Notes: generated from the sequence alone by a model not told the origin. A DNA stretch of 56,549 bases from an uncultured delta proteobacterium (GCA_963733195.1 CAVTCR010000004.1:1-56549), one strand, 5' to 3'; shown: positions 8,175 through 56,549, counted from the stretch's first letter. A program made the numbers and translations.

Positions 8175-8299
8175 CACTATGGCTCCTTCACACCCCACAG
8201 GATTATTTCTGTTATACCAATTTCCGGCACATTCGGCACCGTTGTTCCCCACCTTTTTCGCTGCAGGCGAAAAGGATAAACTCGCGCAGCGGGGAAAGG

Positions 8300-8401
8300 A
8301 GTGATGAGTTAAGAGTGATGAGTTAAGAGTAATAAATGAAGACTCTCAGAATCTTTATTCTTTTCTATCAATTCTTCACTCTTAACTCTTCATTCTTCAC
8401 T
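8300..8401. repeat. Inverted 7-bp tandem arrays (AGTGATG/AGTTAAG vs ACTCTTA/ATTCTTC)
   Basis: agtgatg agttaag agtgatg agttaag ... attcttc actctta actcttc attcttc; lies between divergent genes. Confidence 0.8.
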
Positions 8402-9209: not shown

Positions 9210-9277
9210 AACGTAAGGAAGGTAACGCAGCCTCACCTTCTGCCCTATCACGTTTTGCGATTTACGTTTTACGCCTC
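9207..9277. repeat. Inverted 7-bp arrays (AAAACGT/ACGTTTT type)
   Basis: taaaacgtaag ... tcacgttttgcgatttacgttttacgcctca; starts at the stop codon. Confidence 0.65.
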
Positions 9278-15948: not shown

Positions 15949-17395
15949 TTACCCTTTGATAACCGCCAGGGGTTTGAGCTTCACTACCTTTTTACTAATC
16001 CCAGCCCGATCAACGACATCGACCACATCTGCAACATCCTTGTATGCATACGGCATCTCTTCAGCAAACGTTCCCTTTCCACGATAGCGGGCAATAACAC
16101 CGACTTTGCCAAGCTCCTGATCAAGGTCGCGTCCACGCGCAGCTTTCTTGGCTTGCGCGCGGCTCATCATGCGCCCTGCTCCATGGCACGTCGATCCAAA
16201 GGTCTCACGCATCGCTTTGTCGGTCCCAACCAGTAAGAACGAGTACCGACCCATGTCTCCAGGAATCAGCACCGGCTGGCCTAGTGGTCGCAGCGACGAA
16301 GGAATCGCTAGATGTCCTGGACCGAACGCACGTGTCGCACCTTTGCGATGCACCCATACTTTGCGTTTCACTCCATCAATCTCATGCGTCTCCGGTTTGG
16401 CAATGTTGTGGCACACGTCATAGATCAACCGCATGCCTAGCTCACGCGGTGAAATTTGCAATGTTTTGAGAAACGCGTCTTCGGCCAGACTCATCATTAC
16501 TTGGCGATTGACCCAGGCATAGTTCGCCGCACACGCCATCGCTGCGAGATATCTCTGCCCTTCTGGTGAGGAGATCGGAGCGCACGCAAGTTGTCGGTCA
16601 GGCACGGTGATGTGGTATTTTTCCATCGCCTTGCCCATCACTTTCAGCGCATCTTCACAGGTTTGGTGCCCCAACCCACGTGACCCGGAATGAATGATGA
16701 TCGCTATTTGCCCAACTGACAAGTCCTAACGCCGCAGCAACCTTCTCATCATAGATTTCCTCGATCCGATCGACTTCAAGAAAGTGGTTTCCAGACCCAA
16801 GCGTGCCAACTTGCGTAAGACCACGAGACAGGGCGTCATCCGTTAACGCCTCAGGATCGGCACCAGCAAGACAGCCATTCTCTTCGGTATACTCAATGTC
16901 TTCCGAGCGGCCATAGCCGCGTGCCACCGCCCAGCGCACCCCTTCGCTGGCAAGCTTCTTCTCCTCGGACTTGCTCAGTTTGGGAATCGCACCCTCAGCT
17001 CCGACACCACACGGAATCGACGCAAAGAGCGAGTCTGCCAGGGCTGGTAGTCTTTTTTGAATATCATGCTCGGAAAGCTTTGTAGCAACCAAACGGACGC
17101 CACAATTGATGTCGTAGCCTACGCCGCCAGGCGAAATCGCTCCTTCGTCTGCATCAACCGCCGCAACGCCGCCAATCGGGAAGCCATATCCCCAGTGAAT
17201 ATCCGGCATCGCCAACGAATAGCCCACAATCCCCGGCAGGTGCGCCACATTGGCGACTTGTTCCAGCGATGCATCTTTCTGGATATCGTTCATCATCTCG
17301 CGTGACGCATACACACGGCCAGGAACACGCATATTCCCGTGCTTAGGAATCTCCCATAAGTAATCTTGAATCTGTCGAATTTTGATTTCTGTCAT
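15949..17395 (-). CDS. rtcB: RNA-splicing ligase RtcB (frameshift near 16720)
   Basis: MPDIHWGYGFPIGGV, GVGYDINCGVR, GSGNHFLE, HSGSRG, YDVCHN, HRKGATRA, HGAGR, EEMPYAYK across two overlapping ORFs. Confidence 0.96.
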
Positions 17396-17401
17396 ACGTG
17401 T

Positions 17402-23799: not shown

Positions 23800-23925
23800 A
23801 ATGATGAATTAGAATGCTGAATGATGAATTAAAAATTATCCTCGTCTTCCATTCATCATTCATCGTTCCGCGTTCATCATTTTTCTCTCGTTCATCGTTC
23901 ATCATTTATCATTCAGCGTTTATCT
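23800..23925. repeat. Inverted 7-bp arrays (AATGATG / (A/G)TTCATC)
   Basis: aatgatg...aatgctg aatgatg ... attcatc attcatc gttccgc gttcatc ... gttcatc gttcatc atttatc attcagc gtttatc; includes the kinase stop codon. Confidence 0.85.
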
Positions 23926-25423: not shown

Positions 25424-25478
25424 AAACGATGAATTATGAATACTGAATGCTGACTACTGTTTACTTTCCCCCTACTGA

Positions 25479-26683: not shown

Positions 26684-26765
26684 GAGTAGCCAGTAGTCAG
26701 TAGCCAGTAACCAGGCATGGACTCTCTTTCTTTACTGACTACTGAATGCTGATTACTGATTACTT
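26684..26765. repeat. Inverted 7-bp arrays (CAGTAGC / (C/T)TACTGA)
   Basis: gagtagc cagtagt cagtagc cagtaac ... ttactga ctactga atgctga ttactga. Confidence 0.85.
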
Positions 26766-26777
26766 TTCCCCAAGTGC

Positions 26778-29700
26778 CTATCGGTGCAACCACATCCTCA
26801 AGGCTGACAACAATTGATCGGTGTTGACCGGTTTGGCGAGGTAGTCGGACGCGCCGGCTTCCAGGCACTTCTCGCGATCGCCTTTCATTGCTTTGGCGGT
26901 CAGAGCAATGATGGGCAGTCGCTGGAACGCCGGGTTCTCTCGGATCACTCGCATGGTCTCGTAACCATCCATTTCCGGCATCATAATATCCATCAGCACG
27001 ATCGTCACATCAGGTGTTGAGTCGAGGATGTCAATCGCCTCACGACCGGTACCAGCGGTCAGCACAGTCATGCCACGGCGTTCCAGCACGCTGCTGAGCG
27101 CGAAGATATTCCGCACGTCGTCGTCTACGACCAACACTTTTCTCCCCATCAGGGCGTCGTCAGAGCGGTGCAGCCGGTCGAGCATCTGCTGCTTTTCTGT
27201 CGGCAGGTCGGAGACCACCCGGTGCAAGAACAACGCCGTCTCGTCCAGTAGCCGTTCCGGCGACTCGACTCCCTTAACCACCACACTCCGGGCCAATGTG
27301 TGCAGTTGGGCGTCTTCCTCCGGCGACAGCTCCTTCCCAGTGAAAACTACCACCGGCAAGTCGCTCAGCGCGGTGTTGTCGCGCATGCGCTCCAATACCT
27401 CAAACCCCGTCATGTCGGGCAGACGTAAGTCGAGCACCGCGCAATCGAAGGCTTGTTCACTCAGCGTAACGAGCGCCTCCTTACCCGTCCCAGCCACGGT
27501 AATGTCGATATCGTCGTAGCCTAATAACTCCCTGATGCTCAACTGCTCGGCGGCGTTGTCTTCCACCACTAGCAGTCGCTTGCGGCGTGGTGCAGCGTAG
27601 TCCTTGATCCGCGCCAGCGCCGCCTCCAAGCCCTCAGTCGTCGTGGGTTTGGTGACAAAGGCGAACGCGCCGCGTGCCAGGCCGTGTTGCCGATCTTCAT
27701 CCAACGTCAACATCTGCACCGGGATGTGCCGCGTGGCCGGGTCTTGCTTCAGATGGTTGAGTACTGTCCATCCCAGCATGTCGGGGAGGAACACATCCAG
27801 TGATACAGCCGTCGGGCGGAACTCGCGGGCCAAGGCGAGAGCCTCGGCACCGTGCATGGCCACGAGCACCTTAAACCCTTTGTCGCGGGCCAAGTCACAC
27901 ATGATGCGAGCATAGCCCGGATCGTCTTCGACAATGAGTAAGACAGCGTCATCGGGCTGCAAGGTCTCGCGGTCGTCTGGGATCTTCTCGACCGGGCGTT
28001 CTGCTGTACGCGGGAGCGATATGGCGACAGACGGCGAGGTCCTGCGCAGCCTTATCGACTCGTACCGTCGCCGTGGGCGAGGACGGACCAACGTAGGCCT
28101 GCGGCAGGTAAAGGGTAAAGGTGCTGCCCGAGCCAGGCGCGCTACGCAACTGGATTTCGCCACCCAGTAGGCTGGCCAGCTCGCGGCTGATGGCCAAGCC
28201 CAGGCCAGTGCCACCATACTTGCGACTCGTACCGGCGTCGGCTTGCTGGAAGGCTTCGAAGATAATGCGCTGCTTCTCAAACGGAATGCCGATGCCCGTG
28301 TCAGCAACTTCAAAGGCGATCACCGATGATGCCCCCTTGAGAATTGGATGATCATCACTCCAGCCGCCTACAGCAGCCGAGACGCTGAGGCGTACTCCAC
28401 CTTGCTCGGTAAACTTGAAGGCGTTGGAGAGGAGATTCTTGAGCACCTGCTGCAACCGCTTCGAGTCAGTCACTAAGCTGCGCATGAGATGCGGATCTGT
28501 ATGGACGTCGAAGCTGAGTCGCCGGTTCTCGGCCTCGTGGCGGAACGGGCGCGCGACCACGTCGAGCAGGTTGGAGAAAAAGATCTCCTCGGCATCCACC
28601 GATACCGTACCGGATTCGATCTTGGACAAGTCGAGGATATCGCTGATCAAGTTGAGTAAGTCTGTTCCCGCGCCGTGAATAGTGCGAGAGAATTCAACCT
28701 GCCGGTCAGTGAGATTACCGTCCGGATTTTCGCTGAGCTGTTGCCCAAGCACCAGGATGCTGTTGAGCGGCGTGCGTAGCTCATGCGACATATTGGCCAG
28801 GAATTCGGACTTGTACTTTGAGGTCAGAGCCAACTCTGCTGCTTTCTCTTCCAGCGCCCGGCGGGCCTGTTCAATTTCCTGGTTTTTGCGTTCTACCTCG
28901 ACGTTCCGCTCAGCGAGCTGCTCGGCTTTCTGCGCGAGCTGCTCGTTGGTCTGCTGCAACTCTTTCTGCTGTGTCTGTAACTCAACGGCGAGCTGCTGCG
29001 ACTGTTTGAGCAGCCCTTCGGTCTGCATCGTTGCTTCAATGCTGTTAAGCACAATGCCGATGCTGGCCGTGAGTTGTTCAAGGAACGCCAGATGCGATGG
29101 CGCGAATTCATTGAGGGATGCTAAGGCAATGACCGCCTTGACTTGATCCTCGAAGAGTACGGGCAGGACGATAATGCCGCGGGGAAGGGCTTGCAGGAAA
29201 ACGGACCCGACCACCGACGTATCGGGTGGCACTTGCGCGACCACTATACGTCGCTTCTCGATGGCGCACTGACCGATGAATCCTTGCCCCATTGCGAGCT
29301 GTGGGGGGTAGCCATCGTTATGGCTGTTGGCGTAACTGGCCAGCATCTTGAGGTGCGGTGTGCCTTCGTTGTCCATCTGGTAGATAAGACCCTGGTGGGC
29401 GTTGACCAGCGGCACCAGTTCAGACAGGAGCAGCTTACCGACTGCGACCAAATCACGCTGGCCTTGCAACATCCCGGTAATCCGGGCGAGGTTCGTCTTA
29501 AGCCAGTCCTGTTCGGTATTGCGGTCGGTGGTAAGCCGCAGGTTATTGATCATGGTGTTGATGTTGTCTTTGAGATCGGCGACTTCACCGCTGGCCTCGA
29601 CCTGAATGGAGCGGGTTAAGTCACCCTGAGTGACGGCGGTGGCGACCTCGGCGATCGCTCGCACTTGGCGGGTCAAGTTATCAGCCAATAGGTTGACGTT

Positions 29701-32700
29701 CCCTGTAAGATCTTTCCAGGTGCCGGTGGCATTGGGCACATTGGCCTGACCGCCCAACTTCCCTTCGCTGCCGACCTCACGCGCTACGGTCGTCACCTGG
29801 TCAGCAAAGGTGGCCAACGTATCCGTCACGTTGTTAATCGTATCGGCAAGTGCCGCGACCTCGCCCTTGGCGTTCACTGTCAGTTTCTGCTTGAGATCGC
29901 CGTCGGCGACAGCGGTCACAACTTTCACAATCCCTCGCACTTGCTCGGTGAGATTGGCGGCCATAAAGTTGACCGAGTCGGTAAGGTCCTTCCACGTCCC
30001 CGCCACACCTGGCACGTTGGCTTGCCCACCCAGTTTGCCCTCGGTTCCCACCTCGCGCGCCACACGGGTCACCTCACTCGCGAAGGCGTTGAGCTGGTCG
30101 ACCATGGTGTTAATCGTGTCCTTGAGTTCGAGGATCTCGCCTTTCACGTCCACGGTAATCTTGCGCGAGAGGTCACCGCGGGCCACAGCTGTGGTCACTG
30201 TCGCGATGTTGCGCACCTGCTCGGTGAGATTGGCGGCCATAAAGTTGACCGAGTCGGTAAGGTCCTTCCAGGTCCCCGCCACGCCCGGCACGTTGGCTTG
30301 CCCACCCAGTCGTCCATCACTTCCTACCTCACGCGCCACCCGTGTCACTTCGGCAGCGAATGAACGGAGCTGCTCAACCATAGTGTTCAGGGTTTCCTTG
30401 AGCTGGAGGATTTCACCACTCACGTTCACCGTGATCTTTTTCGAGAGGTCACCGGTGGCAATAGCAGTAGCCACTTCAGCAATGTTCCGTACCTGACCGG
30501 TGAGGTTACTGGCCATCGAGTTGACCGAGTCGGTGAGGTCCTTCCACGTCCCCGCTACACCCGGCACGTTGGCCTGCCCGCCTAAGCGGCCTTCAGAGCC
30601 CACCTCACGCGCCACCCGCGTCACTTCTGAGGCAAAGGCACGCAGTTGGTCCACCATGGTGTTGATCGTGTCCTTGAGTTCGAGGATCTCGCCTTTCACG
30701 TCCACGGTAATCTTGCGCGAGAGATCACCGCGGGCCACGGCAGTCGTCACCTCGGCGATGTTCCGTACCTGACCGGTGAGGTTACTGGCCATCGAGTTGA
30801 CCGAGTCGGTGAGGTCCTTCCACGTCCCCGCCACACCCGGCACAACGCCCTGACCGCCCAACTTCCCTTCGCTACCGACCTCACGCGCCACGCGCGTCAC
30901 CTCGGCGGCGAATGAGCGTAACTGCTCGACCATGGTGTTGAGCGTTTCCTTTAATTGGAGAATTTCGCCGCGTACATCCACCGTGATCTTGCGTGAGAGG
31001 TCACCACTGGCGATAGCCGTCGCCACTTCAGCGATGTTCCGCACCTGACCGGTGAGGTTACTGGCCATCGAGTTGACGTTGTCAGTCAAGTCCTTCCACA
31101 CGCCGCTCACACCGCCGACCTGTGCTTGCCCACCCAGTTTGCCCTCAGTTCCCACTTCACGTGCCACGCGGGTCACCTCACCGGCGAAGGCATTCAGTTG
31201 ATCCACCATGGTGTTCAGGGTGTTTTTCAGTTCCAGAATTTCGCCCTTCACATCCACCGTGATCTTGCGTGAGAGGTCACCACGTGCCACAGCCGTTGCC
31301 ACCTCGGCGATGCTACGGACCTGACCGGTGAGGTTACTGGCCATCGAGTTGACCGAGTCGGTGAGGTCCTTCCACGTCCCCGCCACCCCCGGCACGTTGG
31401 CCTGCCCGCCTAAGCGGCCTTCAGAGCCCACCTCACGCGCCACACGGGTGACTTCACCGGCGAAGCGGTTGAGTTGGTCCACCATCGTGTTCAATGTCTC
31501 TTTGAGCTGGAGAATTTCGCCGCGTACGTCCACGGTAATCTTGCGCGAGAGGTCACCACTGGCGATAGCCGTCGCCACTTCAGCGATGTTCCGCACCTGA
31601 CCGGTGAGGTTACTGGCCATCGAGTTGACCGAGTCGGTGAGGTCCTTCCACGTCCCCGCCACCCCCGGCACGTTGGCCTGTCCGCCCAATCGCCCGTCCG
31701 TACCCACTTCGCGCGCCACACGGGTAACTTCACCGGCAAACGAGTTGAGCTGGTCCACCATCGTGTTCAGGGTATCTTTGAGTTCGAGGAGTTCGCCCTT
31801 CACATCCGCGGTGATTTTGCGTGAGAGGTCACCGCGTGCCACAGCCGTCGCCACTTCAGCGATGTTGCGCACCTGACCGGTGAGGTTACTGGCCATCGAG
31901 TTGACGTTGTCAGTGAGGTCCTTCCAGGTACCGCCCACACCGGGCACTTGCGCTTGGCCGCCCAGTTTGCCATCCGTACCCACTTCGCGCGCCACACGCG
32001 TCACTTCACCGGCGAACGAGTTGAGCTGGTCCACCATCGTGTTGATGGTGTTCTTGAGTTCGAGGATCTCGCCTTTCACGTCCACAGTGATCTTACGCGA
32101 GAGGTCGCCGCTAGCCACGGCGGTAGTCACCTCGGCGATGTTGCGCACCTGGGCAGTCAGGTTACTGGCCATCGAGTTGACGTTATCGGTGAGATCCTTC
32201 CAGGTGCCAGCCACACCAAGCACTTGTGCTTGGCCGCCTAACCGGCCTTCAGAGCCCACCTCGCGCGCCACACGGGTGACTTCACCGGCGAACGAGTTGA
32301 GCTGGTCCACCATCGTGTTGATCGCTTCTTTGAGCTGAAGAATTTCACCGCTCGCAGTCACAGTAATCTTCTTGGAGAGGTCACCACCAGCGATGGCGGT
32401 GGTGACCGTAGCGATGTTGCGCACCTGGGCGGTCAGGTTACTGGCCATCGAGTTGACCGAGTCGGTGAGGTCCTTCCAGGTGCCGCCCACGCCGGGCACT
32501 ATGGCTTGGCCACCCAGTTTGCCGTCGGTACCCACTTCGCGCGCTACACGCGTCACTTCCGAGGCAAACGAGCGCAACTGGTCCACCATCGTGTTGATCG
32601 TATCCTTGAGTTCGAGGAGTTCGCCTTTGACATCCACCGTAATCTTGCGGGACAAGTCGCCACGGGCCACGGCGATGGTCACCTCGGCAATGTTGCGCAC

Positions 32701-33708
32701 CTGGGCGGTCAGGTTACTGGCCATCGAGTTGACCGAGTCGGTAAGGTCCTTCCAGGTGCCGGCTACACCGGGCACTACGGCTTGGCCACCCAGTTTGCCA
32801 TCGGTGCCCACCTCGCGCGCCACACGTGTCACTTCCGAGGCAAACGAGCGCAACTGGTCCACCATCGTGTTGATCGCTTCTTTGAGCTGAAGAATTTCGC
32901 CGCGTACGTCCACCGTGATCTTGCGCGAGAGGTCGCCGCTGGCCACGGCGGTGGTCACCTCGGCGATGTTGCGCACTTGGCCAGTGAGGTTGCTGGCCAT
33001 CGAGTTGACCGAGTCGGTGAGGTCTCTCCAGACGCCGCTCACACCACTGACCTGCGCTTGGCCGCCGAGTTTGCCATCCGTGCCCACCTCGCGCGCCACG
33101 CGCGTCACTTCAGACGTAAACACCCCGAGCTGCTCGATCATGGTATTGACGATCGTCGCTGAGCGCAGGAATTCGCCTTCCAGGGGACGTCCGTCTACGT
33201 CAAGCCGTACGGTTTGTGTCAGGTTTCCCTGCGCAACAGCCGCAATGGCGCGAGTGACCTCGGAGGTCGGGCGCAGGAGATCATCCACCAGGGTGTTGAC
33301 CGAGACTTCCATCGCGCCCCAGGCGCCTTTCACTTGGGTAAAGCGTGTGCGCTCTCGTGTTTTCCCCTCTCTGCCGACGACCTGCCCGATACGTGCCAGT
33401 TCCTGCGCCATCTGCTGGTTGGCAGCAATGATCTCATTGAACGTGTCCGCGATCTTCCCCTCTAATCCAATCCAATCGCCTGGGAGTCGCACGTCAAAGT
33501 CGCCGTCGCGCATGGCCTGCAACCCCGCGAGCAGGCCACGCAAATTGGACGAACTACTCGTCAGACCATTGGCATGGCCGTTCGCATGCCCATTTTTCTT
33601 GGTGGTTTTGGCTGCCCTCGTGGGCTTCACGTTAACCGCTGGGTGTCCGTCTACCTCTTGCCCTCGCGTCTGTGCGTGGATCACCGTGGTTTGGTCGTTC
33701 GTCTTCAT
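26778..33708 (-). CDS. Giant cytoplasmic hybrid histidine kinase: poly-HAMP, GAF, HisKA-HATPase, 3 receivers (frameshift near 28030)
   Basis: 13 clear plus 1 degenerate 92-aa units ([16 protein letters not shown]...WKDLTD.VN); [28 protein letters not shown]; three receivers in ORF 26778..28313. Confidence 0.95.
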
Positions 33709-33864
33709 CTCAATTCCCCCGAATGAATGCTAGTTTACTACTGTAGAGCATGCTTATTCACTGCAAGAATCATTCTTATCCTTATCATTTCCTATGCAAG
33801 GAGTGAACTTCTGGAGATGAACAATGCTGCAGCTCGTCATTCCGGGCAAGCGTGAGACCGGAAT

Positions 33865-34390
33865 TCAATAATGATAATTTTCAAAGCGATGCATCGCCCG
33901 AGCCCACGGCTCTTGCTCAATGTAACTCAGCGCCTTGAGTTGTCGCAGATGATGCGCGTTACACAACGCGTGGAGCACGCTGAGCATCGCCAAATAGGGA
34001 CGCAAGAAATCATGGACGAAAATCCCGCACACGTCCGCCCACATCGCGCCGCGCTGGGCCGCCGTGCGGGAGCACGTCAGCAGGCCGGTCGACGCGACAT
34101 GTAGCCACTGCAACCTGCCCGCAATGCGATACCCGGTTTCGTCCAGATGTTTGACTACTGCCTGCTTGAACTGCTGCTCGATATGTTCCGCTAACCCGGT
34201 GAATGCCTCCGCTTTCCGTTGCCCTATCGCCGCGATGGTTGCGGTGGCCACCTCCACGGCAAAGAGATCTTTCATCGAATGTGCGAGCCGGTCTTCAGGA
34301 ATTAACTGCCACGTCTGCAAATAGCCCACCAGCGCTTCCACCGTCGAGCCGTATTGGGCCGCTGCCCGCACCGACGATGGAAATGGGCTG
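33865..34390 (-). mobile_element. IS66-family transposase remnant
   Basis: QYG...YL...QLIP..R, HLDETG, WLHVAST, VHD..PY, HALCNAHHLR; both ends missing. Confidence 0.85.
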
Positions 34391-34551
34391 CGTTTCTGAG
34401 CAGCGCTAGCGTTGAGCACCGGATATCCAGTAATGATAATCCTCACTGTGGGCCGTCGTGAACGTAAAATTTTTTCCTCCGGTGTGTCAGACCTCTTGCA
34501 TAGGAAACGGTATGACCTACGATGGACTCGTCTGCTCCTCACCCTTCACCC

Positions 34552-44635: not shown

Positions 44636-44746
44636 TGCAATACTTCCTCTCTCGCTCTCTCGGACTGAGACTCTGCGATTCGTGAACGGGCGTGACCTGA
44701 CGATAATTTCTCCTTTGTCTACGTAACACGTACACGCTTTACGCAA

Positions 44747-45532
44747 TTAGTTCGCCTTTCGCCGTCGATATTTCTCGACCATATACGAACCAGCAGCAAC
44801 TGACCCACCATCGACTGTCAACACAGTTCCAGTGATGAAGCCTGAATCCGGGGAGGCAAGAAACAGCGCAGCATGGGCAATCTCGTCAACCGTGCCAAGC
44901 CGTGAGATCGGCATGTGTTGCGCACGTTCACGCAAGGCCTCAGGAGGCCAGGTACGTAGCAGTTCGGTATCGATCGGGCCTGGTGCAATCGCATTTACCG
45001 TAATGCCATCATCTGCCAGATCAAGAGCGGCAGCACGCGTCAAACCTATGATCCCGGCTTTAGCAGCACCATACGGCGCAAGATCGATCGGTCCAATCAA
45101 TCCTGCAATCGAGGCAATATTGATAATTCGACCATACTTGTGCTTGACCATTTCTTGCGCAGCAGCTTGGGCACAGTAGAACGTACCAAAGAGGTGAATC
45201 TGTAGATGTCGCTCCCAGTTCTCTTTGGTGATCTTGAGAAAGTGTTGCGCTTTGCCGATGCCGGCATTGTTGACAATCACATCGAGTTTTCCAAGTGCAG
45301 CCGCTGCCTCATGAACAGCAGCTTGCGCTTTCTCGCAGTTGCTAACATCGACGGCTTTGGTGAAAGTTTTTCTCCCGAGCGCCTTGACTTCTTCACCTAC
45401 AGCGTACGCCCACTCTTCATTCAGATCCAAAATAGCGACATTAGCGCCCTCACGGGCGAAACGGAGTGCAATCGCCTTGCCGATTCCACGGCCTGAACCT
45501 GTGACTAACGCAACTTGCCCTTGGAGTTGCAT
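44747..45532 (-). CDS. SDR oxidoreductase (FabG-like)
   Basis: TGSGRGIG, NNAG, YGAAK. Confidence 0.93.
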   Translation of the reverse strand: MQLQGQVALVTGSGRGIGKAIALRFAREGANVAILDLNEEWAYAVGEEVKALGRKTFTKAVDVSNCEKAQAAVHEAAAALGKLDVIVNNAGIGKAQHFLKITKENWERHLQIHLFGTFYCAQAAAQEMVKHKYGRIINIASIAGLIGPIDLAPYGAAKAGIIGLTRAAALDLADDGITVNAIAPGPIDTELLRTWPPEALRERAQHMPISRLGTVDEIAHAALFLASPDSGFITGTVLTVDGGSVAAGSYMVEKYRRRKAN

Positions 45533-45547
45533 ACAATATCCTTTCTT

Positions 45548-45616
45548 AAACGTAAGACGTAAAACGTAACCACCCCTTCCCTTTTTCTTACGTTTTATTC
45601 TTTATGCATTACGTGT
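45548..45616. repeat. Inverted 7-bp arrays (AAACGTA / TACGTTT type)
   Basis: aaacgta agacgta aaacgta ... ttacgtt ttattct ttatgca ttacgtg. Confidence 0.75.
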
Positions 45617-46439: not shown

Positions 46440-47461
46440 TTACGCTTTCCGAAACGCCGGCATGACTTCTTTGGCAAACAACTCAAACGCGCCCGTCGCC
46501 TTCTTCGGGTCAAGTCCAGGAAGTTGCGTCAGCATAATGAAATGAGTGCACTGGAACTCTTTCTGGAATTGCTCAATTTTGCGCGCAACTTGATCCGGCG
46601 TCCCGACCATCGCCGCACGGCCAAACGCCGAGTTACGAATCTCGCTGTGATGCTTGAAGGTCCAGACATCTTTATCACCCGGTGCGTCATTGGCTTCGGC
46701 AAGAATATGGCCGTAGAACTCCATCATGCTGTGGAGGTGCGGCGCAACGTTCTCCCACGCCTCGTCTTCGGTTTTTGCGGCATACACTAAGCGGAGCTGA
46801 GCAATGTTGAAATTCTTGGGATCATAGCCGTTCTTCTTGAGTTCGTCAGTGTACCACGGAGCCGGATCAGGGCCGAGGGTCGCCATTAAATGGCATCCTG
46901 CTTTCGCTACGCGACGGGTCGCTTTCTCTGCCCGTGCGCCGATCCACATCGGCATGGGGTTCTGCACCGGTCTGAGGCGAGAGGGTCATATTTTTGACTT
47001 GGGTAAACTTCCCATCAAAGGTCACGTTTTCTTCATTCCACAGGCGTTGCACCAATCGCACCCCTTCATGCATCCGCGCTGAGCGTTCTTCACGTTTCAT
47101 ACGGAACGCGTCGAATTCCATATACGAATAACCTTGGCCGACACCAAGGTCAAAACGGCCATTGGAGATAATATCAACACAAATGGAATCTTCTGCCGTC
47201 ACGCACTGGATGTTGGAATGGTAGCAACAAGATAAACGTCCCGATGCGGATGCGGCTGGTGCGCGCAGCGACAGCAGCAGCCGTCGGCAGAATCGACGGA
47301 TTGTAACCATCTTCAGTGAAGTGATGTTCCGTCAGCCAAATGTTGTCGTAGCCGAGTTCTTCACAGCGCACGATCTGATCAAGGATCGCTTTATACAACT
47401 CAGGAAACGGACGTCGCCATTGTTTAGGATTACGAAAATCTTCCATAAAGCCGAATTTCAT
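46440..47461 (-). CDS. LLM-class flavin-dependent oxidoreductase (two frameshifts)
   Basis: WLTEHHF.EDGY, RIRIGT, SNGRFDLGVGQGY, MVGTPDQV, FAKEVMPAF across three ORFs. Confidence 0.9.
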
Positions 47462-47629
47462 ATGGACCTCCTTCTCACTCTGCGCATCGGTGGGGTACGA
47501 TACCTCTCCCACTCACGAAACGCAAAGCACTCGCAAGCTGGTTGTCTCGCCTCTATTTCAAGATGGGGATAGAAGCGAGCGGTCTTGATCTTTTTGCGCA
47601 CCTGTTTCAAAAGGAGAGAAACAGCCCTC

Positions 47630-48150
47630 CGGTGGAGAAAGAAAACGCTCCGGCGGTCCTGTGATCGGGCCACTGGCAAGAGTGCGATTCAGATGGTGAG
47701 TGCGTGGGCCAGTGCCAATCGGCTGGAGTTAGGCCAACAGAAGGTCGATGAGAAATCGAACGAGATCACGGCGATCTGGGCCTTGCTGCAGCTCTTAGAG
47801 CTCAAGGGGTGCATTGTGACCATTGATGCGATGGGCTGTCAGAAAGCGATTACGCAGACAATTATTAAGCAAGAGGCGGACTGCGTGTTGACGCTCAAAG
47901 CCAACCACGGGCTGCTGATGAGGAAGTGCAGCGCTTCTTTGCGGGGGCACGGCAGCGTCAGTTTACCGACGTGGCGCATGAGTATGATCACACGCTAGAT
48001 GGCACCCATGGGCGGATCGAAGAACGACACTATTGGTTAGTGTCTGATCTGACGTGGCTGACGGCAAGGCGAGAGTGGACGGGGTTACGGAGTCTGGGCA
48101 TGGTAGAGCGGCAGCGAACGGTAGCCGGGAAAACAACAGTGGAAAGGAGG
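47630..48150 (+). mobile_element. ISAs1-family transposase remnant
   Basis: KTLRRS...MVSAWA...LGQ.KVDEKSNEITAI...VTIDAMGCQ...LKAN...HGRIEER. Confidence 0.9.
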
Positions 48151-48857: not shown

Positions 48858-49430
48858 TCATCGCTTGGGAGGAAGGATGTCAGACACAGCGATTCGTTGC
48901 CCGTGCGGAAGCGTAAGAGTCTGACCGGCGCGAAACGTACGCACGCGACGATACTGGCCGGTAGCCGTATCGGGGGAAGACATGGCTTCTATCCGGCGAC
49001 GCCTGAGCTCCACCACCCAATAGTGAGGAATGCCACTGCTCGCGTACACACGAGCTTTCTGTTGTCGGTCTTGTCGCACGCTGCTGTCTGCCACTTCGAT
49101 AATCAAGAAAATCTGCTCGGGGCCAGGATGGGCTTCGGCGTAATCCAATGGATCGGGAGCACAAAGCACCACATCAGGTTCTGGCTGGTTATGCTCGTCA
49201 AGTGCAATAGGAGACTGGACGCGAATATAGACCTCGGGGCCACACAGTTTCATGAGCTGATAGTTGAGGCGATTCACCGTCGCGGCATGAGGGGTGTTCT
49301 GTGGAGACATGGTTATCACTGCACCGTCGAGCAGCTCAACTTTTTCTCCAGCAAAAAATCCGGAGTCTACCAACCGTTGGAACTCACCTCGGGAGAATAA
49401 TCGCGCAATTGGTGCCGTTGCCGATGCCAT
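48858..49430 (-). CDS. Uma2 family endonuclease
   Basis: VELLDG..ITMSP...H, PEPD, IIEVADSS...D...K..YA..GIP.YWVV. Confidence 0.92.
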   Translation of the reverse strand: MASATAPIARLFSRGEFQRLVDSGFFAGEKVELLDGAVITMSPQNTPHAATVNRLNYQLMKLCGPEVYIRVQSPIALDEHNQPEPDVVLCAPDPLDYAEAHPGPEQIFLIIEVADSSVRQDRQQKARVYASSGIPHYWVVELRRRRIEAMSSPDTATGQYRRVRTFRAGQTLTLPHGQRIAVSDILPPKR

Positions 49431-49452
49431 ACAAACCTCTTCATTTTTGTCT

Positions 49453-52400
49453 CTATCGCTGTTTTTTCTTCTTCCTCTGCCCCGGTCTCTTCGGCGTTTT
49501 CCCTTCAAGCCCATCCAACAAGGCTTTCGCCTCTTGCAAATCCTTGGTGTCAAATCCTTCAGTGAACCAGTTGTAAACTTCGGATAACATCTGGTGTGCT
49601 TCGTCGCGTTTGCCTTGCTGTTGCCACAGGCGCGCAAGGCTCATCGTCGCACGCAGTTCGAGGGACTTGGCTTGTTGCTTGCGGGAAATCTCGATCGCTT
49701 TCAGAAAACATGCTTCGGCTTCCTGAGCTCAGGCTGGGCTAGGATTTGGAGAGTCAGGATTTGGGAGTTGTGACTTTTGACTTTTGACCTTCCTGACTTT
49801 TGACTTCCTGTTGAAGCGTCAGCTCGCCTTTAAGCCGATACAGCTCCGCCTCGTAGCACCGCTCCCCAGTTCTGTCCACAAAAGCTAACGCTTCAGCCAG
49901 TGCAGCTCAGCCCTTCCTCCATCTGTCCCGTTTTTCCATACGCTTCGGCCAGCAGGGCCAGATATGCGACTCGACGTCACCTCTCCCCGTAGCTCGCAGG
50001 GCTGCCAAGCCCTGGCGTATCTGGGCAATTCCTTCCTCTCCCTGTCCCTGCACAGCGAGCGCCCAGCCCTGCAGGATAGTGCCATGCGCCAGCCAGACGG
50101 GAAACCCTTGCTCGGTACTGAGAGCAGCAAAGCCTCGGCCCGCTTTTGGGCTGCCTGCCCTTCTCGGCGGAACTGATGCAGCCTGGCTGCCCAGTACAAC
50201 GCATTGGCGAGGCTGTAGGGGTGAGCCAGCTCCTGGGCGAGGGTAAGGCAGCCTCGTGATCCTCTTGAGCGCCTGGTCGGGATAACCCAGATACCCTTGA
50301 GCCGCCGACCCCATAGCAGAGGCAAAGCACCCCAGGGTCCTCGCCGTAGAGCACGGCTAGGGAACCGTGCTTGCAGCGTCGTAGAGGGCAATCCCCTGCT
50401 CCGTATATGCTCTCGGGCGGGGGCAAACTCCCCAGGTCGAGAGCAAGGTAGCCACCCAACATACTGTGGGCCTCCACGAGAAGGGCTGAGTCTTGCGCGT
50501 CTGGGCCAAGCGGAGAAACTGCTCGGCCAACTCGCGTCGCCGTCTGGAGTTCCGCTCGCACAAGATAAAAGATCCACAATCCCCAGAGCACCGGAAAGAG
50601 CTGCGGCGTCTCCCCAATCTGCTGGCAGAGCGCTCGGGCCCGGGTGTACGCTTGTTCCACCTCCGGAGCGGCGTAGCCTTTGGTTGCTATCAACGAATTG
50701 CCCAAGGCGATTTGCAGCGTAAGTTCTTGCTGCGAGCGCTCAGGGGTGTCCGGGAGAGTAATGAGCAACTCCAAGGCAGTAGTCAGGTGATTGATCGCTT
50801 CCGCATTGGCCGATCGCTGCACCGCTTGTTGCCCAGCAAGTTGCAGATAATCTATCGCCTTCTGCGTATTGCCGCTGCGACTGTAGTGTGACGCTAGTTC
50901 ACTGTATTGGTCCTCTAACCGACTGTGAAAAATTGTCTCGATTGCCCTGGCTGCGCGTTCGTGCAGCACTTTGCGACGTTCAACCAACAGAGAGTTGTAG
51001 GCCACTTCCTGCGTCAGTGCGTGCTTGAAGACGTAGTCTGGTTCAGGAAATGCCGGTTGTTCGTAGATAAATTCTGCGTCTCGTAAACGAGAGAGCAACC
51101 GTTGCAACGTTTCTTCAGAGTGATCGACAACTTGCTTGAGCAAACCGAGCGAGAATTCTTTGCCGATCACGGCCAGGGTTTGCAGCAGATCTTTTTCTTC
51201 TAGTGATAAGCGATCAATACGTGAGGCAAGGACGGCTTGGACGGTGGGAGGGATGTGCATCGTAGGTGGCGGGTTTGCAAACCCGCTCCTACATCTCTGC
51301 GCCAACACGCCCTGCTCGGCTAATTCCTGTACGATCTCTTCCATGAAAAAGGGATTGCCTTCGGTTTTGTCGAGGATGAATTGGTGTAGGGGCGACCGGA
51401 CGGTCGTCCCTACTTTTTCGGCAATTAATGCCGTCAGCATCTCCTCAGCATCTGCTTGGCTCAACGGATCAAGCCGCAGTTGCGTGTAATACGTCTTGCT
51501 GCCCCATTCATGGCGATATTCGGGACGGTAATTCACAAGCAGGAGGATCTTCGCACTGGCAATACTTTCACTTAGCAGACTCAAAAATGCCTGAGTCTCG
51601 TTATCGAGCCAATGTAAATCCTCAAAGATCAAGATCAAGGGCTGGTTGAGGCTCTCACGGATCAACACTCGTTTGATCGCCTCTAGCGTGCGTTTGCGGC
51701 GAATCTGCGGGTCCATTTGCTGGAGAGGAGAACTCGGCTCGGCAATGCCTAACAAGTAGAAGAGATATGGCAGGGTTTCTTCTAAGGTGCGATCTAAGGT
51801 TAGGACTTTGCCAGTGAGCTTCTCACGTCGTCGCCGTTCGTCATCTTGCGGCGTAAGCTGGAAGTAGTTCTTGAGTAAATCGATGAGTGGCAAATAGGGA
51901 TACGCTTTGCCGTGCGAGACTGAGAATGTCTCCAGCACAACACAACCGGTTTGGTTGAGCAGTTTGAATTCATGGAACAGACGAGATTTCCCTACGCCAG
52001 GTTCACCCATCACGCCGACAATCTGTCCATGCCCGGCCCGTGCCTGTGCTAACGCCGAGTGTAAGGCGTCTACTTCTCGTTGTCGTCCGATAAAACGGGC
52101 CAATCCTCGCCGGGCTGCAACTTGCAATTTGGTCCGTAGTGGCCCAACTCCGAGTACTTCATAAATCTTGAGGGGATCAGTCACGCCTTTGACTTGGGCA
52201 CCACCCAAAGACTTAAACTCGAAGTAGCCGTCCGTCAGTTTGTGCGTATGTTCGCTGACAACGATAGCTCCCGGCGTAGCTAGACTTTCCATTCTGGAGG
52301 CAATGTTGGTCGAGTGACCTACAGGGACGTAGTCAGTATGGAGGTCATCTTTACGAATAGACCGTACGACTACCTCACCGGTGTTGATGCCCACACGAAT

Positions 52401-53015
52401 CTGGACATTGATGCCCTGTTCCAGACGTAACTTCTCCGCTTGTTTCTTATTCTCTTCTTGCATCAACAACGCTGCATACAAGGCACGGTGCGCGTGGTCT
52501 TCATGAGCAATCGGCGCACCAAAGAGTGCAAAGATGCCATCACCCAGCGACTGCGCTACGTAGCCTTCATAACGATGGACGGCGTCCATCATCACTTGCA
52601 ATGCAGGATCAACGATGCGCTGGGCGTCTTCGGGATCAAGGTTTTCAATAAGGGCGGTCGAACCTTTGATGTCGGCAAAGAGGGCAGTGATAGTCTTGCG
52701 CTCGCCATCGGCTATGCCCCGTGCTTCCATCGCGGCCTGCTCCGCCGTATGCGTTCGGCCAGATGCGCAGGAGTGTAGGAAATTGGGGGCTGGGGGTTAG
52801 GGGCTGCGTTTGCGTATTACGTGGACTTTTTGGACTTTGGACCTGGACCTGACTTTGGACTGCTCCGTAAGGGACGTTCCGCATTCGTTGCAGAACTTAC
52901 TGCCAGGCGAATTGAGGGTTGCACACGCAGGGCACACAACTTCGAGTTTGTTGCCACACTCGTTGCAAAATTTGGCTCCGTCTTTGTTCTCGTGCTCGCA
53001 CTGGGAACAGCGCAT
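49453..53015 (-). CDS. Double-zinc-ribbon, class III nucleotide cyclase, STAND-type ATPase, TPR protein (several frameshifts)
   Basis: CSQC...FCNECG twice; LFADIKGST, LGDG, RVGINTG, NIASR; GEPGVGKS, FEDLHW, GNPFF, FKHAL; end WFTEGFDTKDLQEAKALL. Confidence 0.93.
51262..51292. repeat. GTAG-type REP palindrome inside the cyclase-STAND CDS
   Basis: gtaggtggcgggtttgcaaacccgctcctac; translated as CRSGFANPPPT. Confidence 0.85.
51386..51413. repeat. Second GTAG-type REP palindrome inside the cyclase-STAND CDS
   Basis: gtaggggcgaccggacggtcgtccctac; translated as VGTTVRSPL. Confidence 0.85.
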
Positions 53016-53065
53016 GATTACCCTCAGCACGTGTTACGTGGATGCCCGCCCTATTGCTATGAATC

Positions 53066-53155
53066 CGTAAAACGTAAAGATAAAACGTAAAAAGATCTAC
53101 GCTTCACGTTTTACGCCTCACGTTCCCTTCACGCCTCACGTTTTACGCCTTACGC
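53066..53155. repeat. Inverted 7-bp arrays (AAAACGT / (C/T)ACG(T/C)(T/C)T)
   Basis: cgtaaaacgtaaa...taaaacgtaaa ... tacgctt cacgttt tacgcct cacgttc ... cacgcct cacgttt tacgcct tacgcta; includes the stop of the GlcG-like gene. Confidence 0.85.
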
Positions 53156-55034: not shown

Positions 55035-55170
55035 TTTTGCCTCGTTTCTCATGCAGCATTTATACGACCAAAGGACGAACCGCACTTGCCCTACACCGCT
55101 CAGCACGTGTTACATGATTTGTGTCGAAGTCTGCTTCAAAGGTCACGCAGCACGCTTCACGCATCACATC

Positions 55171-55635: not shown

Positions 55636-55691
55636 TGTTGTCCTTCCTCAGCGTTGTCCTTCCTCAGCTAGCTTTTTAGAATGGTGTACGA

Positions 55692-55997
55692 CTAACTCAT
55701 CTTTGTCTTGGATCTTCTTGAAACGAGCGGGATAAGGCAACGCAAGGCTGCGTTAACCGCTTCGGAATCGGGGAAATGCGCATGGACATCTGGTGCCAAA
55801 AGAACAGCACCTTCTGCAAGGGTAAAATGTTGAACCGTACTGGTACCATCCTGTTTTTGGATTTTTACCGCATGGCCTGCGCGATATGATTTGTAATACT
55901 TGCCTTGGACTCCACCCTTCATTCGGGCAAAGTCATACTCTGGACGCAGGTCATTACGGTCGATGTCCGCGGTCTCTCGTTTAGCGGTTTTCTTCAT
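55692..55997 (-). CDS. BrnA-like antitoxin
   Basis: DLRPEYDF...GKYY...LAPDV...FPDSEAVNAALR. Confidence 0.8.
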   Translation of the reverse strand: MKKTAKRETADIDRNDLRPEYDFARMKGGVQGKYYKSYRAGHAVKIQKQDGTSTVQHFTLAEGAVLLAPDVHAHFPDSEAVNAALRCLIPLVSRRSKTKMS

Positions 55998-56261
55998 AAT
56001 CCCTCCGTTCGGTCCGCGTCGCCTTGCGACAGCTAATAAGGCGAATATTCATTTCCCGATCTGTGTGGCTTACCACAAGAATACGTCCTGAGCAGAGAGC
56101 CCGATACTCACGTACCGAGCCTCAACAAATGCATGCTCTGGATCAGGAAAGGTCAGTAAGAAAGGATTGTTGAAAAGCGATTTTGCTTCGTCAAAGCTAA
56201 CCTTATGTTTCCTCAGGTTTGTGCGGGCTTTTTCCTCATCCCAATCGAACGTTAACGGCAT
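55981..56261 (-). CDS. BrnT family toxin (frameshift near 56090)
   Basis: FDWDEEKARTNLRKHKVSFDEA...D.EH...R...IG; shifted frame gives IRLISCRKATRTERRDYEENR*. Confidence 0.9.
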
Positions 56262-56300: not shown

Positions 56301-56549
56301 TTAGCCAATCGTGATCTCGACCAGCAGAGCCTTGGCCTCCTGCAAATCTTTGGTGTCAAATCCTTCCGTAAACCAATTATAAATCTCTGATAACATCTGG
56401 TGAGCTTCGTTGAGTCTGTTACGTACTTCGTGGTGCGTAGTACGTGTTGCGTGACCCTGGGCTTGCTGTCGTCGTAACCTAACCAGACTCATGACAGCGC
56501 GTAGTTCGAGGGACTTGGCTTGTTGCTTGCGTGAAATGTCGATGGCTTT
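56301..56549 (-). CDS. C-terminus of a second STAND-TPR paralogue (5' part outside the window)
   Basis: AIDISRKQQAKSLELRAVMSL...EAHQMLSEIYNWFTEGFDTKDLQEAKALL, highly similar to 49453..49700. Confidence 0.9.
   Translation of the reverse strand, partial: KAIDISRKQQAKSLELRAVMSLVRLRRQQAQGHATRTTHHEVRNRLNEAHQMLSEIYNWFTEGFDTKDLQEAKALLVEITIG

Follow-up and report, generated by a model that had tools for sequence, protein, structure and literature searches.

The 56,549-nucleotide stretch of DNA from an uncultured delta proteobacterium that is analysed here (GCA_963733195.1 CAVTCR010000004.1:1-56549; its whole length is referred to as the window) ends inside a gene, paralogue 2, whose last codons contain a run of heptanucleotides. 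The run lengthens the encoded protein by 14 amino acids with respect to the same site in a second copy within the window, paralogue 1. The explanation that best joins the observations, and which we consider probable, is that the run is an old, degenerate, in-frame array of six heptamers, which grew in place and was filtered to steps of three units at the tip of a helical hairpin. Microsatellites with non-triplet units are usually viewed as frame-breaking switches or as intergenic clutter. Here, a 7-nucleotide repeat would have been long resident in a conserved gene family, with the reading frame acting as a filter that turns slippage into steps of seven residues, and would offer a countable natural example of repeat instability and selection jointly shaping the length of a protein.

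The array at the window edge and its short-form counterpart

The relevant features of the two copies, all on the minus strand, are the following.

56301–56549, minus strand: 3' end of paralogue 2, from translation, 82 codons plus stop (56301–56303); long-form C-terminal helical module
56409–56462, minus strand: loop segment, residues A30–N47 of the fragment, AQGHATRTTHHEVRNRLN; degenerate heptamer array, in the register common to 27 homologous arrays
56419–56453, minus strand: five in-phase YACG units, from sequence and lag-7 identity
49453–49728, minus strand: short-form C-terminal module of paralogue 1, AQEAEACFLKAIEISRKQQAKSLELRATMSLARLWQQQGKRDEAHQML...WFTEGFDTKDL..., with the stop at 49453–49455
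49603–49619, minus strand: short-form turn Gln-Gln-Gly-Lys-Arg-Asp; AGCAAGG at 49613–49619 fits the core A.CA.G. described below and is a candidate seed heptamer
49747–49810, minus strand: linker arrays of heptamers in paralogue 1, with coding-strand units of the AAAGTCA type that are translated as ..KSQEGQKSKV..
49977–52730, minus strand: body of paralogue 1, with Guanylate_cyc at residues 33–212 and AAA_16 at residues 234–415

The window cuts paralogue 2, so that no more than its final 82 codons are covered and its N-terminal architecture lies outside. The fragment (P0001) is translated as KAIDISRKQQAKSLELRAVMSLVRLRRQQAQGHATRTTHHEVRNRLNEAHQMLSEIYNWFTEGFDTKDLQEAKALLVEITIG, followed by the stop codon. 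Around the site its peptide is SLVRLRRQQAQGHATRTTHHEVRNRLNEAHQML, and paralogue 1, at about 49600 on the minus strand, reads SLARLWQQQGKRDEAHQML. Both peptides had been given exactly by an earlier interpretation of the DNA (the sequence-only reading), and the surplus of 14 amino acids or 42 nucleotides that it described is clean in a MAFFT alignment of the two 3' ends. The DNA alignment contains a single 42-column gap and no other indel within the shared coding part, with a mean column identity of 72% outside the gap. MAFFT places the gap at window positions 56420–56461; counted by codons, 18 of paralogue 2 (56409–56462) stand in for four of paralogue 1 (GKRD).

In the common register the loop array of paralogue 2 is GCCCAGG GTCACGC AACACGT ACTACGC ACCACGA AGTACGT AACAGAC. 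The five units listed previously sit exactly at 56419–56453, where 18 of 28 comparisons match at a lag of seven nucleotides; the mean for all 35-nucleotide windows of the 56.5 kb is 7.0, with a standard deviation of 2.56. Other lags score 3 to 11 over this segment, and lag 14 scores 15. Scores of at least 18 lag-7 matches are reached in just ten regions of the window, the remaining nine being intergenic or linker heptamer arrays, and at 153 positions, compared with a mean of 1.16 and a maximum of 10 in 50 shuffles. Because its lag-7 score is far above both the window mean and the shuffles, the 7-nucleotide periodicity of the array exceeds chance. The array is degenerate, all its units differing from one another, and is not reported by Tandem Repeats Finder (TRF) at a minimum score of 30. 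Of the properties of heptanucleotide tandem repeats, it has the head-to-tail repetition beyond chance and lacks the high tract purity.

The domains in the body of paralogue 1 were placed on a 939-residue stop-to-stop frame (49980–52796). In Pfam, Guanylate_cyc is found at 1.1e-24 (87.5 bits, cut-off 21.9) and AAA_16 at 3.6e-23 (83.3 bits, cut-off 32.6), and the protein matches solved adenylate and guanylate cyclases (class III cyclase structures). Its 3' third requires at least three frame changes in a three-frame translation: the reading frame breaks near 49985 and near 49905, an in-frame TGA (49729–49731) stands immediately ahead of the C-terminal module, and the linker arrays break the common frame of this module and the YRLKGELTL motif upstream of it. 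Paralogue 1 is a degraded, frameshifted remnant, either a pseudogene or carrying assembly errors, and it is this remnant that serves as the "without" copy in the internal with-and-without comparison drawn by the sequence-only reading. Two other genes of the window are also split, namely RtcB at 15952–17401, which falls into two overlapping frames (Pfam positions 1–176 and 176–426), and likewise a luciferase-like monooxygenase at 46443–47331. This suggests that the window holds several pseudogenes or assembly indel errors, so that the two are not distinguishable for paralogue 1.

Spread of the long form and its length steps

When the 82-residue fragment is used as query, 7970 of 8000 scored candidates match at E ≤ 0.001. 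Insert classes were counted in the best 120 of these 7970 matches, a list that is skewed towards the query's own form: 113 proteins have the +14-residue insert of the window, two have the short form, two have +21 residues, and +28, +15 and +12 residues are each found once. Thus 118 are long forms, with an excess that is a multiple of 21 nucleotides in 116. Full-length proteins among the best 120 matches listed carry PF00211+PF13191 or PF00486+PF13191.

A scan of species-representative genomes gave 78 loci (L001–L078), all on contigs of metagenome-assembled genomes (MAGs). The contigs are titled Candidatus Binatia, Deltaproteobacteria bacterium or Methylomirabilota, with a few titled Enterobacteriaceae, Klebsiella or Acidobacteriaceae; 27 long copies are present, from five MAG assemblies titled Binatia or Deltaproteobacteria. 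The best locus match to paralogue 2, L001, is 84% identical. At the nucleotide level the two agree at 46 of 54 positions of the insert (85%) and at 74 of 90 positions of the flanks (82%), and since insert and flanks are equally conserved, both were inherited together. These comparisons indicate that the insert is an old feature of a widespread long-form subfamily, the short form being likewise old and widespread; that the array is old also follows from the fact that all its units differ. The 42 nucleotides had been proposed as a gain that distinguishes the two window paralogues, which does not hold for an inherited insert in a family where both forms are old. The proposal had named its own counter-case, a conserved ancestral subfamily feature whose homologues lack a 7-bp periodicity: the first half of this applies, the second does not, as the homologues do show the periodicity.

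A different account would have six heptamers inserted recently, and in frame, in the window genome, drawn from the neighbouring population of intergenic repeats and thereby separating the paralogues. The clean 42-nucleotide gap fits this account, as does the richness of the window in period-7 arrays (16 of its 34 TRF rows are of period 7 and three more of period 14) and the presence of ACG in two or three other window arrays. The intergenic arrays in question, all three named by the sequence-only reading, are:

55143–55170, plus strand: intergenic array TCACGCA GCACGCT TCACGCA TCACATC, flanked by the genes for the PNPOx-like protein and aldehyde dehydrogenase
53098–53155, plus strand: intergenic array TACGCCT CACGTTT, of period 14/7, upstream of paralogue 1
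44715–44750, plus strand: irregular short YACG-spaced stretch at a stop/start junction, not reported by TRF at score 30

The first has the.CACGC core of the loop arrays, though on the strand opposite to theirs, and, estimated by hand, a single match of this kind is not surprising when there are about 17 window arrays. Other window arrays have unrelated units. In the related loci, units bearing ACG or CGT are present in 14 of 25 period-7 arrays in loops, in 8 of 109 in a linker further upstream and in 23 of 140 off both of these hotspots; the last fraction is about what chance would give, as a core of this kind is expected, again by hand estimate, in roughly one of every five random heptamers. 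The sequence-only reading took the insert and the intergenic arrays to have the same unit. What they share is only the YACG core, and the identity finds no support beyond chance. Also opposed to a recent insertion are the occurrence of the insert in 113 of the best 120 proteins and in 27 copies from five MAG assemblies, its identity to L001, which equals that of the flanks, the differences between all its units, and the local seed held by the short forms (see below). We regard a recent import as exceedingly improbable.

Loop lengths were measured in the loci and the window as the distance from the AKS.ELR anchor to WFTEGF. The WFTEGF..T.DL motif occurs in 90 copies, 89 of which have the anchor in the same frame, and 87 copies are distinct.

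34 amino acids (short form): 59 copies
41 amino acids: 1 copy
47 amino acids: 1 copy
48 amino acids: 14 copies
55 amino acids: 8 copies
62 amino acids: 2 copies
68 amino acids: 1 copy
83 amino acids: 1 copy

The excess over the short form is 7, 14, 21, 28 or 49 amino acids, all multiples of 21 nucleotides, in 26 of the 28 long copies, which thus vary among paralogues by whole units, with 3, 6, 9, 12 or 21 heptamers. Loop length in relatives thus differs almost only by sets of three repeats, or seven amino acids. Against an expectation of 1/7 for in-frame lengths, the binomial probability is 3e-20 with copies taken as independent and 1e-3 for five of seven length classes. The three-unit rule put forward earlier is therefore borne out both in these copies and in the 116 of 118 long forms from the database, and the tabulation of paralogue C-termini suggested with it shows insert lengths enriched in multiples of 21 nucleotides.

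The nucleotide core, the predicted structure and the probable origin of the array

The arrays of the 28 long copies (27 from the loci, plus the window) were written as heptamers from anchor codon 20. A single register is common to all 28, in agreement with the earlier claim that the extra DNA is heptamer-derived, and every one of them shows 7-nucleotide periodicity. Two related unit types, A[T/C/A]CACG[C/T/G] and AGCAGGG/AGCAAAG, often occur within one array, with the CACG-type units occupying the 3' side. In L022, three AGCAGGG units are translated as EQGAGSR, and A.CACG. units give H-[A/E]-[S/T]-R-[T/N]-T-[Q/H]. Runs of identical units are present in L014, L022, L023 and L028 and point to ongoing expansion elsewhere in the family. 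Pooled over the 28 arrays, identity is 0.562 at lag 7, 0.549 at lag 14, 0.511 at lag 21 and 0.21 to 0.31 at other lags, and lag-7 identity in the flanks is 0.27. Since lag 7 is at least as strong as lag 21, the repeat unit is seven nucleotides rather than 21.

Core statistics were taken from 178 units of 26 arrays (copies from L001–L054 and the window). Heptamer positions 1, 3, 4 and 6 each hold about 1.1 bits of information, while positions 2, 5 and 7 hold 0.16 to 0.48 bits. Units match the core A.CA.G. in 80.5, 83.8 and 81.4% of cases at codon positions 1, 2 and 3, respectively; the flanking columns of the 28 genes agree with their consensus in 90, 93 and 66% of cases at these positions. Codon choice in the arrays departs from the background, for which the bodies of the same genes were used:

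Thr ACG: 23 of 24 in arrays, background 0.34
Ser TCA: 19 of 19 in arrays, background 0.09
Ala GCA: 21 of 27 in arrays, background 0.16
Thr ACA: 10 of 11 in arrays, background 0.13
His CAC: 28 of 29 in arrays, background 0.54

In the 113 proteins with +14 amino acids, the insert residues follow codon classes with one free base (S/T/P/A from NCA, T/N/I/S from ANC and A/E/V/G from GNN). Conservation is by heptamer position and not by codon, which rules out a purely protein-level cause of the periodicity. That the core is kept equally at all codon positions, synonymous sites included, points to maintenance at the nucleotide level. RNA structure in the array region is not significant (z = -1.43; 19 of 200 shuffles fold equally well).

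By its matches, the paralogue 2 fragment belongs to a cyclase/AAA_16/TPR-type family, of which it represents the helical module at the C-terminus. The 82-residue fragment has no match in Pfam or NCBIfam, and on a 63-residue fragment the Pfam models TPR_19 and TPR_10 remain under their cut-offs (20.0 versus 25 and 18.4 versus 27.5). Among curated models the nearest is TIGR03903 (TOMM system kinase/cyclase fusion), which scores 400.1 bits against paralogue 1, below its cut-off of 705.75, and 32.3 bits against the C-terminus of L001, and does not match P0001. Paralogue 1 has no kinase domain. It shares Guanylate_cyc and AAA_16 with the class III cyclase/AAA_16 (STAND-like)/TPR multidomain proteins, and after these domains comes a putative helical-repeat C-terminus.

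The C-terminal 296 residues of L001, the closest full homologue, were modelled with AlphaFold2 from a 59-row alignment. The model is an all-helical stack of hairpins, with a mean predicted local distance difference test score (pLDDT) of 93 and a predicted template modelling score (pTM) of 0.90. From the AKS anchor, a helix of residues 222–242 extends into the insert; a turn (residues 243–248, HAIRTT) connects it to a second helix (residues 249–269), which leads from QHETRTRL into the conserved EAH..L..IYNW. By block, pLDDT across the insert is 86 to 95, and the preceding linker (residues 177–198) is non-helical, with a pLDDT of 62 to 80. The insert is thus predicted to be the tip of the last helical hairpin, and its effect on the protein would be a longer protruding hairpin; the insert would be tolerated because the added residues only lengthen this protrusion.

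Protein structure itself might impose steps of seven residues, if helical heptads and a selected H-x-x-R-x-T motif were the cause and the DNA period a by-product. In the model the insert extends both helices, +14 amino acids, equal to one heptad for each helix, is the most frequent class by a wide margin, and insert residues R7, T9, H11 and L17 are found in 106, 112, 108 and 113 of the 113 proteins, respectively; a rule of one heptad per helix could add to the preference for +14 amino acids. As a sole cause, such heptads predict a period of 21 nucleotides, yet identity at lag 7 (0.562) is not lower than at lag 21 (0.511). Core bases are kept at synonymous third positions, as in Ser TCA (19 of 19, against a background of 9%), and the variation of the residues tracks codon classes and not chemistry. 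Odd multiples (+7, +21 and +49) also make up 10 of the 26 copies that obey the rule. This explanation is very unlikely.

For the preferred explanation, growth in place, the short forms provide a starting point. Of 59 short forms, 45 have a heptamer that fits A.CA.G. at the Gln-Gln-Gly codons (background 3 in 3393), the commonest being AGCAAGG (11), AGCAGGG (10) and AACAAGG (10). The Gly-Lys codons give a weaker match, ..CA.G., which is in the register of the arrays, in 33 of 59 short forms (background 47 in 3393). Core-like heptamers in the short forms favour amplification in place over import from intergenic repeats. A heptamer that an ancestral short form already had in the codons of its Gln-Gln-Gly(-Lys) turn would have been amplified by strand slippage, and the resulting array would continue to change by gain and loss of units. 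As 7 and 3 have no common factor, only three-unit changes keep the invariant C-terminal WFTEGFDTxDL helix in frame, and selection would therefore let only steps of seven amino acids pass. The site may tolerate these changes because the extra residues would only extend the protruding helical hairpin.

Several points weigh against this explanation. Two of the long copies, with +13 and +34 amino acids, are off the three-unit rule, and the binomial probabilities given above overstate the significance, the copies being related. The loci were picked by their likeness to a long-form query, so the ratio of 28 long to 59 short copies is not a census. At the loop, 89 of 90 motif copies keep both anchors in one frame in a search that favoured in-frame copies; out-of-frame copies would rank low or escape the same-frame anchor search, in which one of 90 was without the anchor. 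The Gln-Gln-Gly seed heptamer is 5 nucleotides out of register with the arrays, and simple slippage plus drift does not account for fixed positions 1, 3, 4 and 6 in old, non-identical units. The structural model is of L001, 84% identical over the shared 79 residues, and not of the window protein. Slippage is inferred from the comparison of paralogues only. Finally, the number of long-form origins is not settled by two trees. In a quick tree of the bodies (55 rows) long-form and short-form copies are intermingled, and the tree needs 13 changes, at least four of them forced by starred branches; a DNA tree of the C-terminal module (85 of 87 copies, 180 columns) has one starred branch, too few to count origins, and is still compatible with a single origin.

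Linker arrays, other heptamer repeats and neighbouring genes

A second and more variable hotspot of heptamers lies shortly upstream of the loop. TRF on the 78 loci (526,967 nucleotides) gives 616 rows, of which 274 have period 7, 76 period 14 and 18 period 21; among the other periods, 8 is the most frequent (78 rows). Of the period-7 rows, 109 are located no more than 320 nucleotides upstream of the anchor, in the linker between YRLKGELTLQ and EAEACFLKAIEI. In the loci, the linker arrays stand 50 to 320 nucleotides upstream of the anchor. The linker peptides are readings of heptamers, among others QFKVQGSKFKV, ESQKSKGKSQKSK and TDPRPLTPDPQ. In 64 copies the linker is 7 to 54 residues long, with one or two arrays, the units of which differ between paralogues. 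The state of the linker in 86 copies, a count that leaves out paralogue 2 of the window, is as follows.

In frame and open: 64 copies
Out of frame: 12 copies, paralogue 1 of the window included
With an in-frame stop: 1 copy
Too near to a contig end: 7 copies
Without the upstream motif: 2 copies

Among testable copies, 12 of 77 are out of frame and one of 77 has an in-frame stop, to which pseudogenes and assembly errors may contribute. Measured from YRLKGELTL to EAE..F in the 64 copies, with an imprecise downstream anchor, linker length follows no clean 7-residue rule, the lengths modulo 7 being spread as 8/5/7/17/6/12/9.

Unrelated linkers and loop arrays are found on closely related bodies, as in L004 and L020, whose bodies are 78% identical; either the arrays turn over fast or paralogues exchange C-terminal modules. 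These differing arrays on related bodies would be in line with the array core being a functional nucleic-acid element, such as a heptad-spaced protein-binding or recombination-promoting motif, selected as DNA or RNA in a tolerant loop. Body and C-terminal trees disagree on the placement of the long form, 109 of the 274 period-7 rows are in the 320-nucleotide upstream linker, and conservation of the core is independent of codons and above that of flank third positions (81% versus 66%). The folding analysis of the array RNA, however, gave nothing significant (z = -1.43), the trees are weakly supported, and repeated slippage together with conversion within arrays could keep the core too. We consider a functional element of this kind unlikely. 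A related and rather doubtful proposal is that the core is kept by selection at the nucleic-acid level or by directed homogenisation, with linker and hairpin tip both serving as length-diversifying, recombination-prone cassettes. If it were true, the two hotspots of this large, sensor-like family would make up a contingency system by which Binatia-like bacteria vary protein architecture, and would not be passive debris of slippage.

Heptameric repeats are described as over-represented among the long simple sequence repeats (SSRs) of many bacteria, mostly in intergenic positions and abundantly in some large genomes, in the Mrazek 2007 survey, as related in PMC4692102 and PMC4679880; the same papers mention polymerase slippage as the proposed cause of long SSRs and a preference of coding-region repeats for units that are multiples of three. 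Like the long 7-nucleotide SSRs of that survey, the loop array consists of head-to-tail heptamers; unlike them, it belongs to a conserved gene family, has a fixed structural site, and is old, degenerate and quantised in three units. The TAACTGA arrays of Beggiatoaceae and cyanobacteria are mainly intergenic and occasionally in open reading frames (ORFs), where they are read as LSVISYQ (PMC4679880); there, a single unit dominates the whole genome, and most of the ORFs concerned encode hypothetical proteins. The loop array resembles them in giving 7-residue peptide units in coding orientation. It differs in that the units vary by site, the site is common to dozens of paralogues and the core is kept synonymously. 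GGGNATC heptamers, which form G-quadruplexes and occur across the genomes of Xanthomonas and Nostoc in arrays of 2 to 26 units (PMC4692102), are unlike the loop array, which is coding and has no G-tracts. The heptanucleotide repeats of Haemophilus influenzae hmw1A are a phase-variable contingency locus (PMC8262952). As in hmw1A, the unit has seven nucleotides, and its gain or loss would be expected from slippage. In the linker hotspot 12 of 77 testable copies are out of frame and one has an in-frame stop; at the loop site the states seen were all in frame, in a search that favoured these.

Cyanobacterial STRR (short tandemly repeated repetitive) heptamers are dispersed intergenic arrays belonging to a few fixed families in heterocystous cyanobacteria. 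PMC4692102 makes mention of a report on Calothrix. An identification of the present arrays with STRR repeats was rejected: the relatives are not cyanobacteria-titled, the units differ from array to array and the loop array is coding.

In open-access papers and preprints we found no description of arrays in the present cyclase/AAA_16/TPR family, of any heptamer array that keeps to one structural site in a defined multidomain family, of its explicit quantisation in seven amino acids, of codon-independent conservation of its core, or of heptamer arrays in Binatia-like genomes. Heptamer arrays are already known as a kind. Heptamer-built linkers and loops mark a lineage (MAGs titled Binatia or Deltaproteobacteria) as well as a large cyclase/ATPase/TPR family, and the codon-independent conservation of the core is a testable oddity outside textbook slippage.

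Short arrays of 3 to 10 heptamers, with unrelated units, are located in many intergenic spacers of the window, often at gene ends (8299–8401, 9250–9273, 23800–23924, 25437–25459, 26685–26764, 45548–45569, 52784–53155 and 55143–55170). One of them, at 26732–26764, has the unit TTACTGA, one base off the TAACTGA of Beggiatoaceae and cyanobacteria (PMC4679880). A much longer repeat, 11.4 copies of a 276-bp unit at 29959–33112, lies within an ORF on the minus strand (27952–33729) and encodes about 12 HAMP domains of a 1926-residue GAF/HisKA/HATPase histidine kinase.

Directly downstream of paralogue 2 is an ORF for a BrnT-type toxin (56070–56261, minus strand, Pfam 4e-16), followed by an ORF of 101 amino acids (55692–55997) that has no Pfam match and is possibly an antitoxin. 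A gene for a Uma2-family endonuclease (about 48858–49440, minus strand) begins right after the stop codon of paralogue 1. Fragments of IS66-family and DDE_Tnp_1 transposases are present at 33868–34545 and 47573–47995. The start of the PNPOx-like gene, which is on the minus strand, is immediately preceded by a perfect 16-nucleotide direct duplication (two copies of GTTGTCCTTCCTCAGC, 55637–55668) that covers the apparent ribosome-binding region of the gene.

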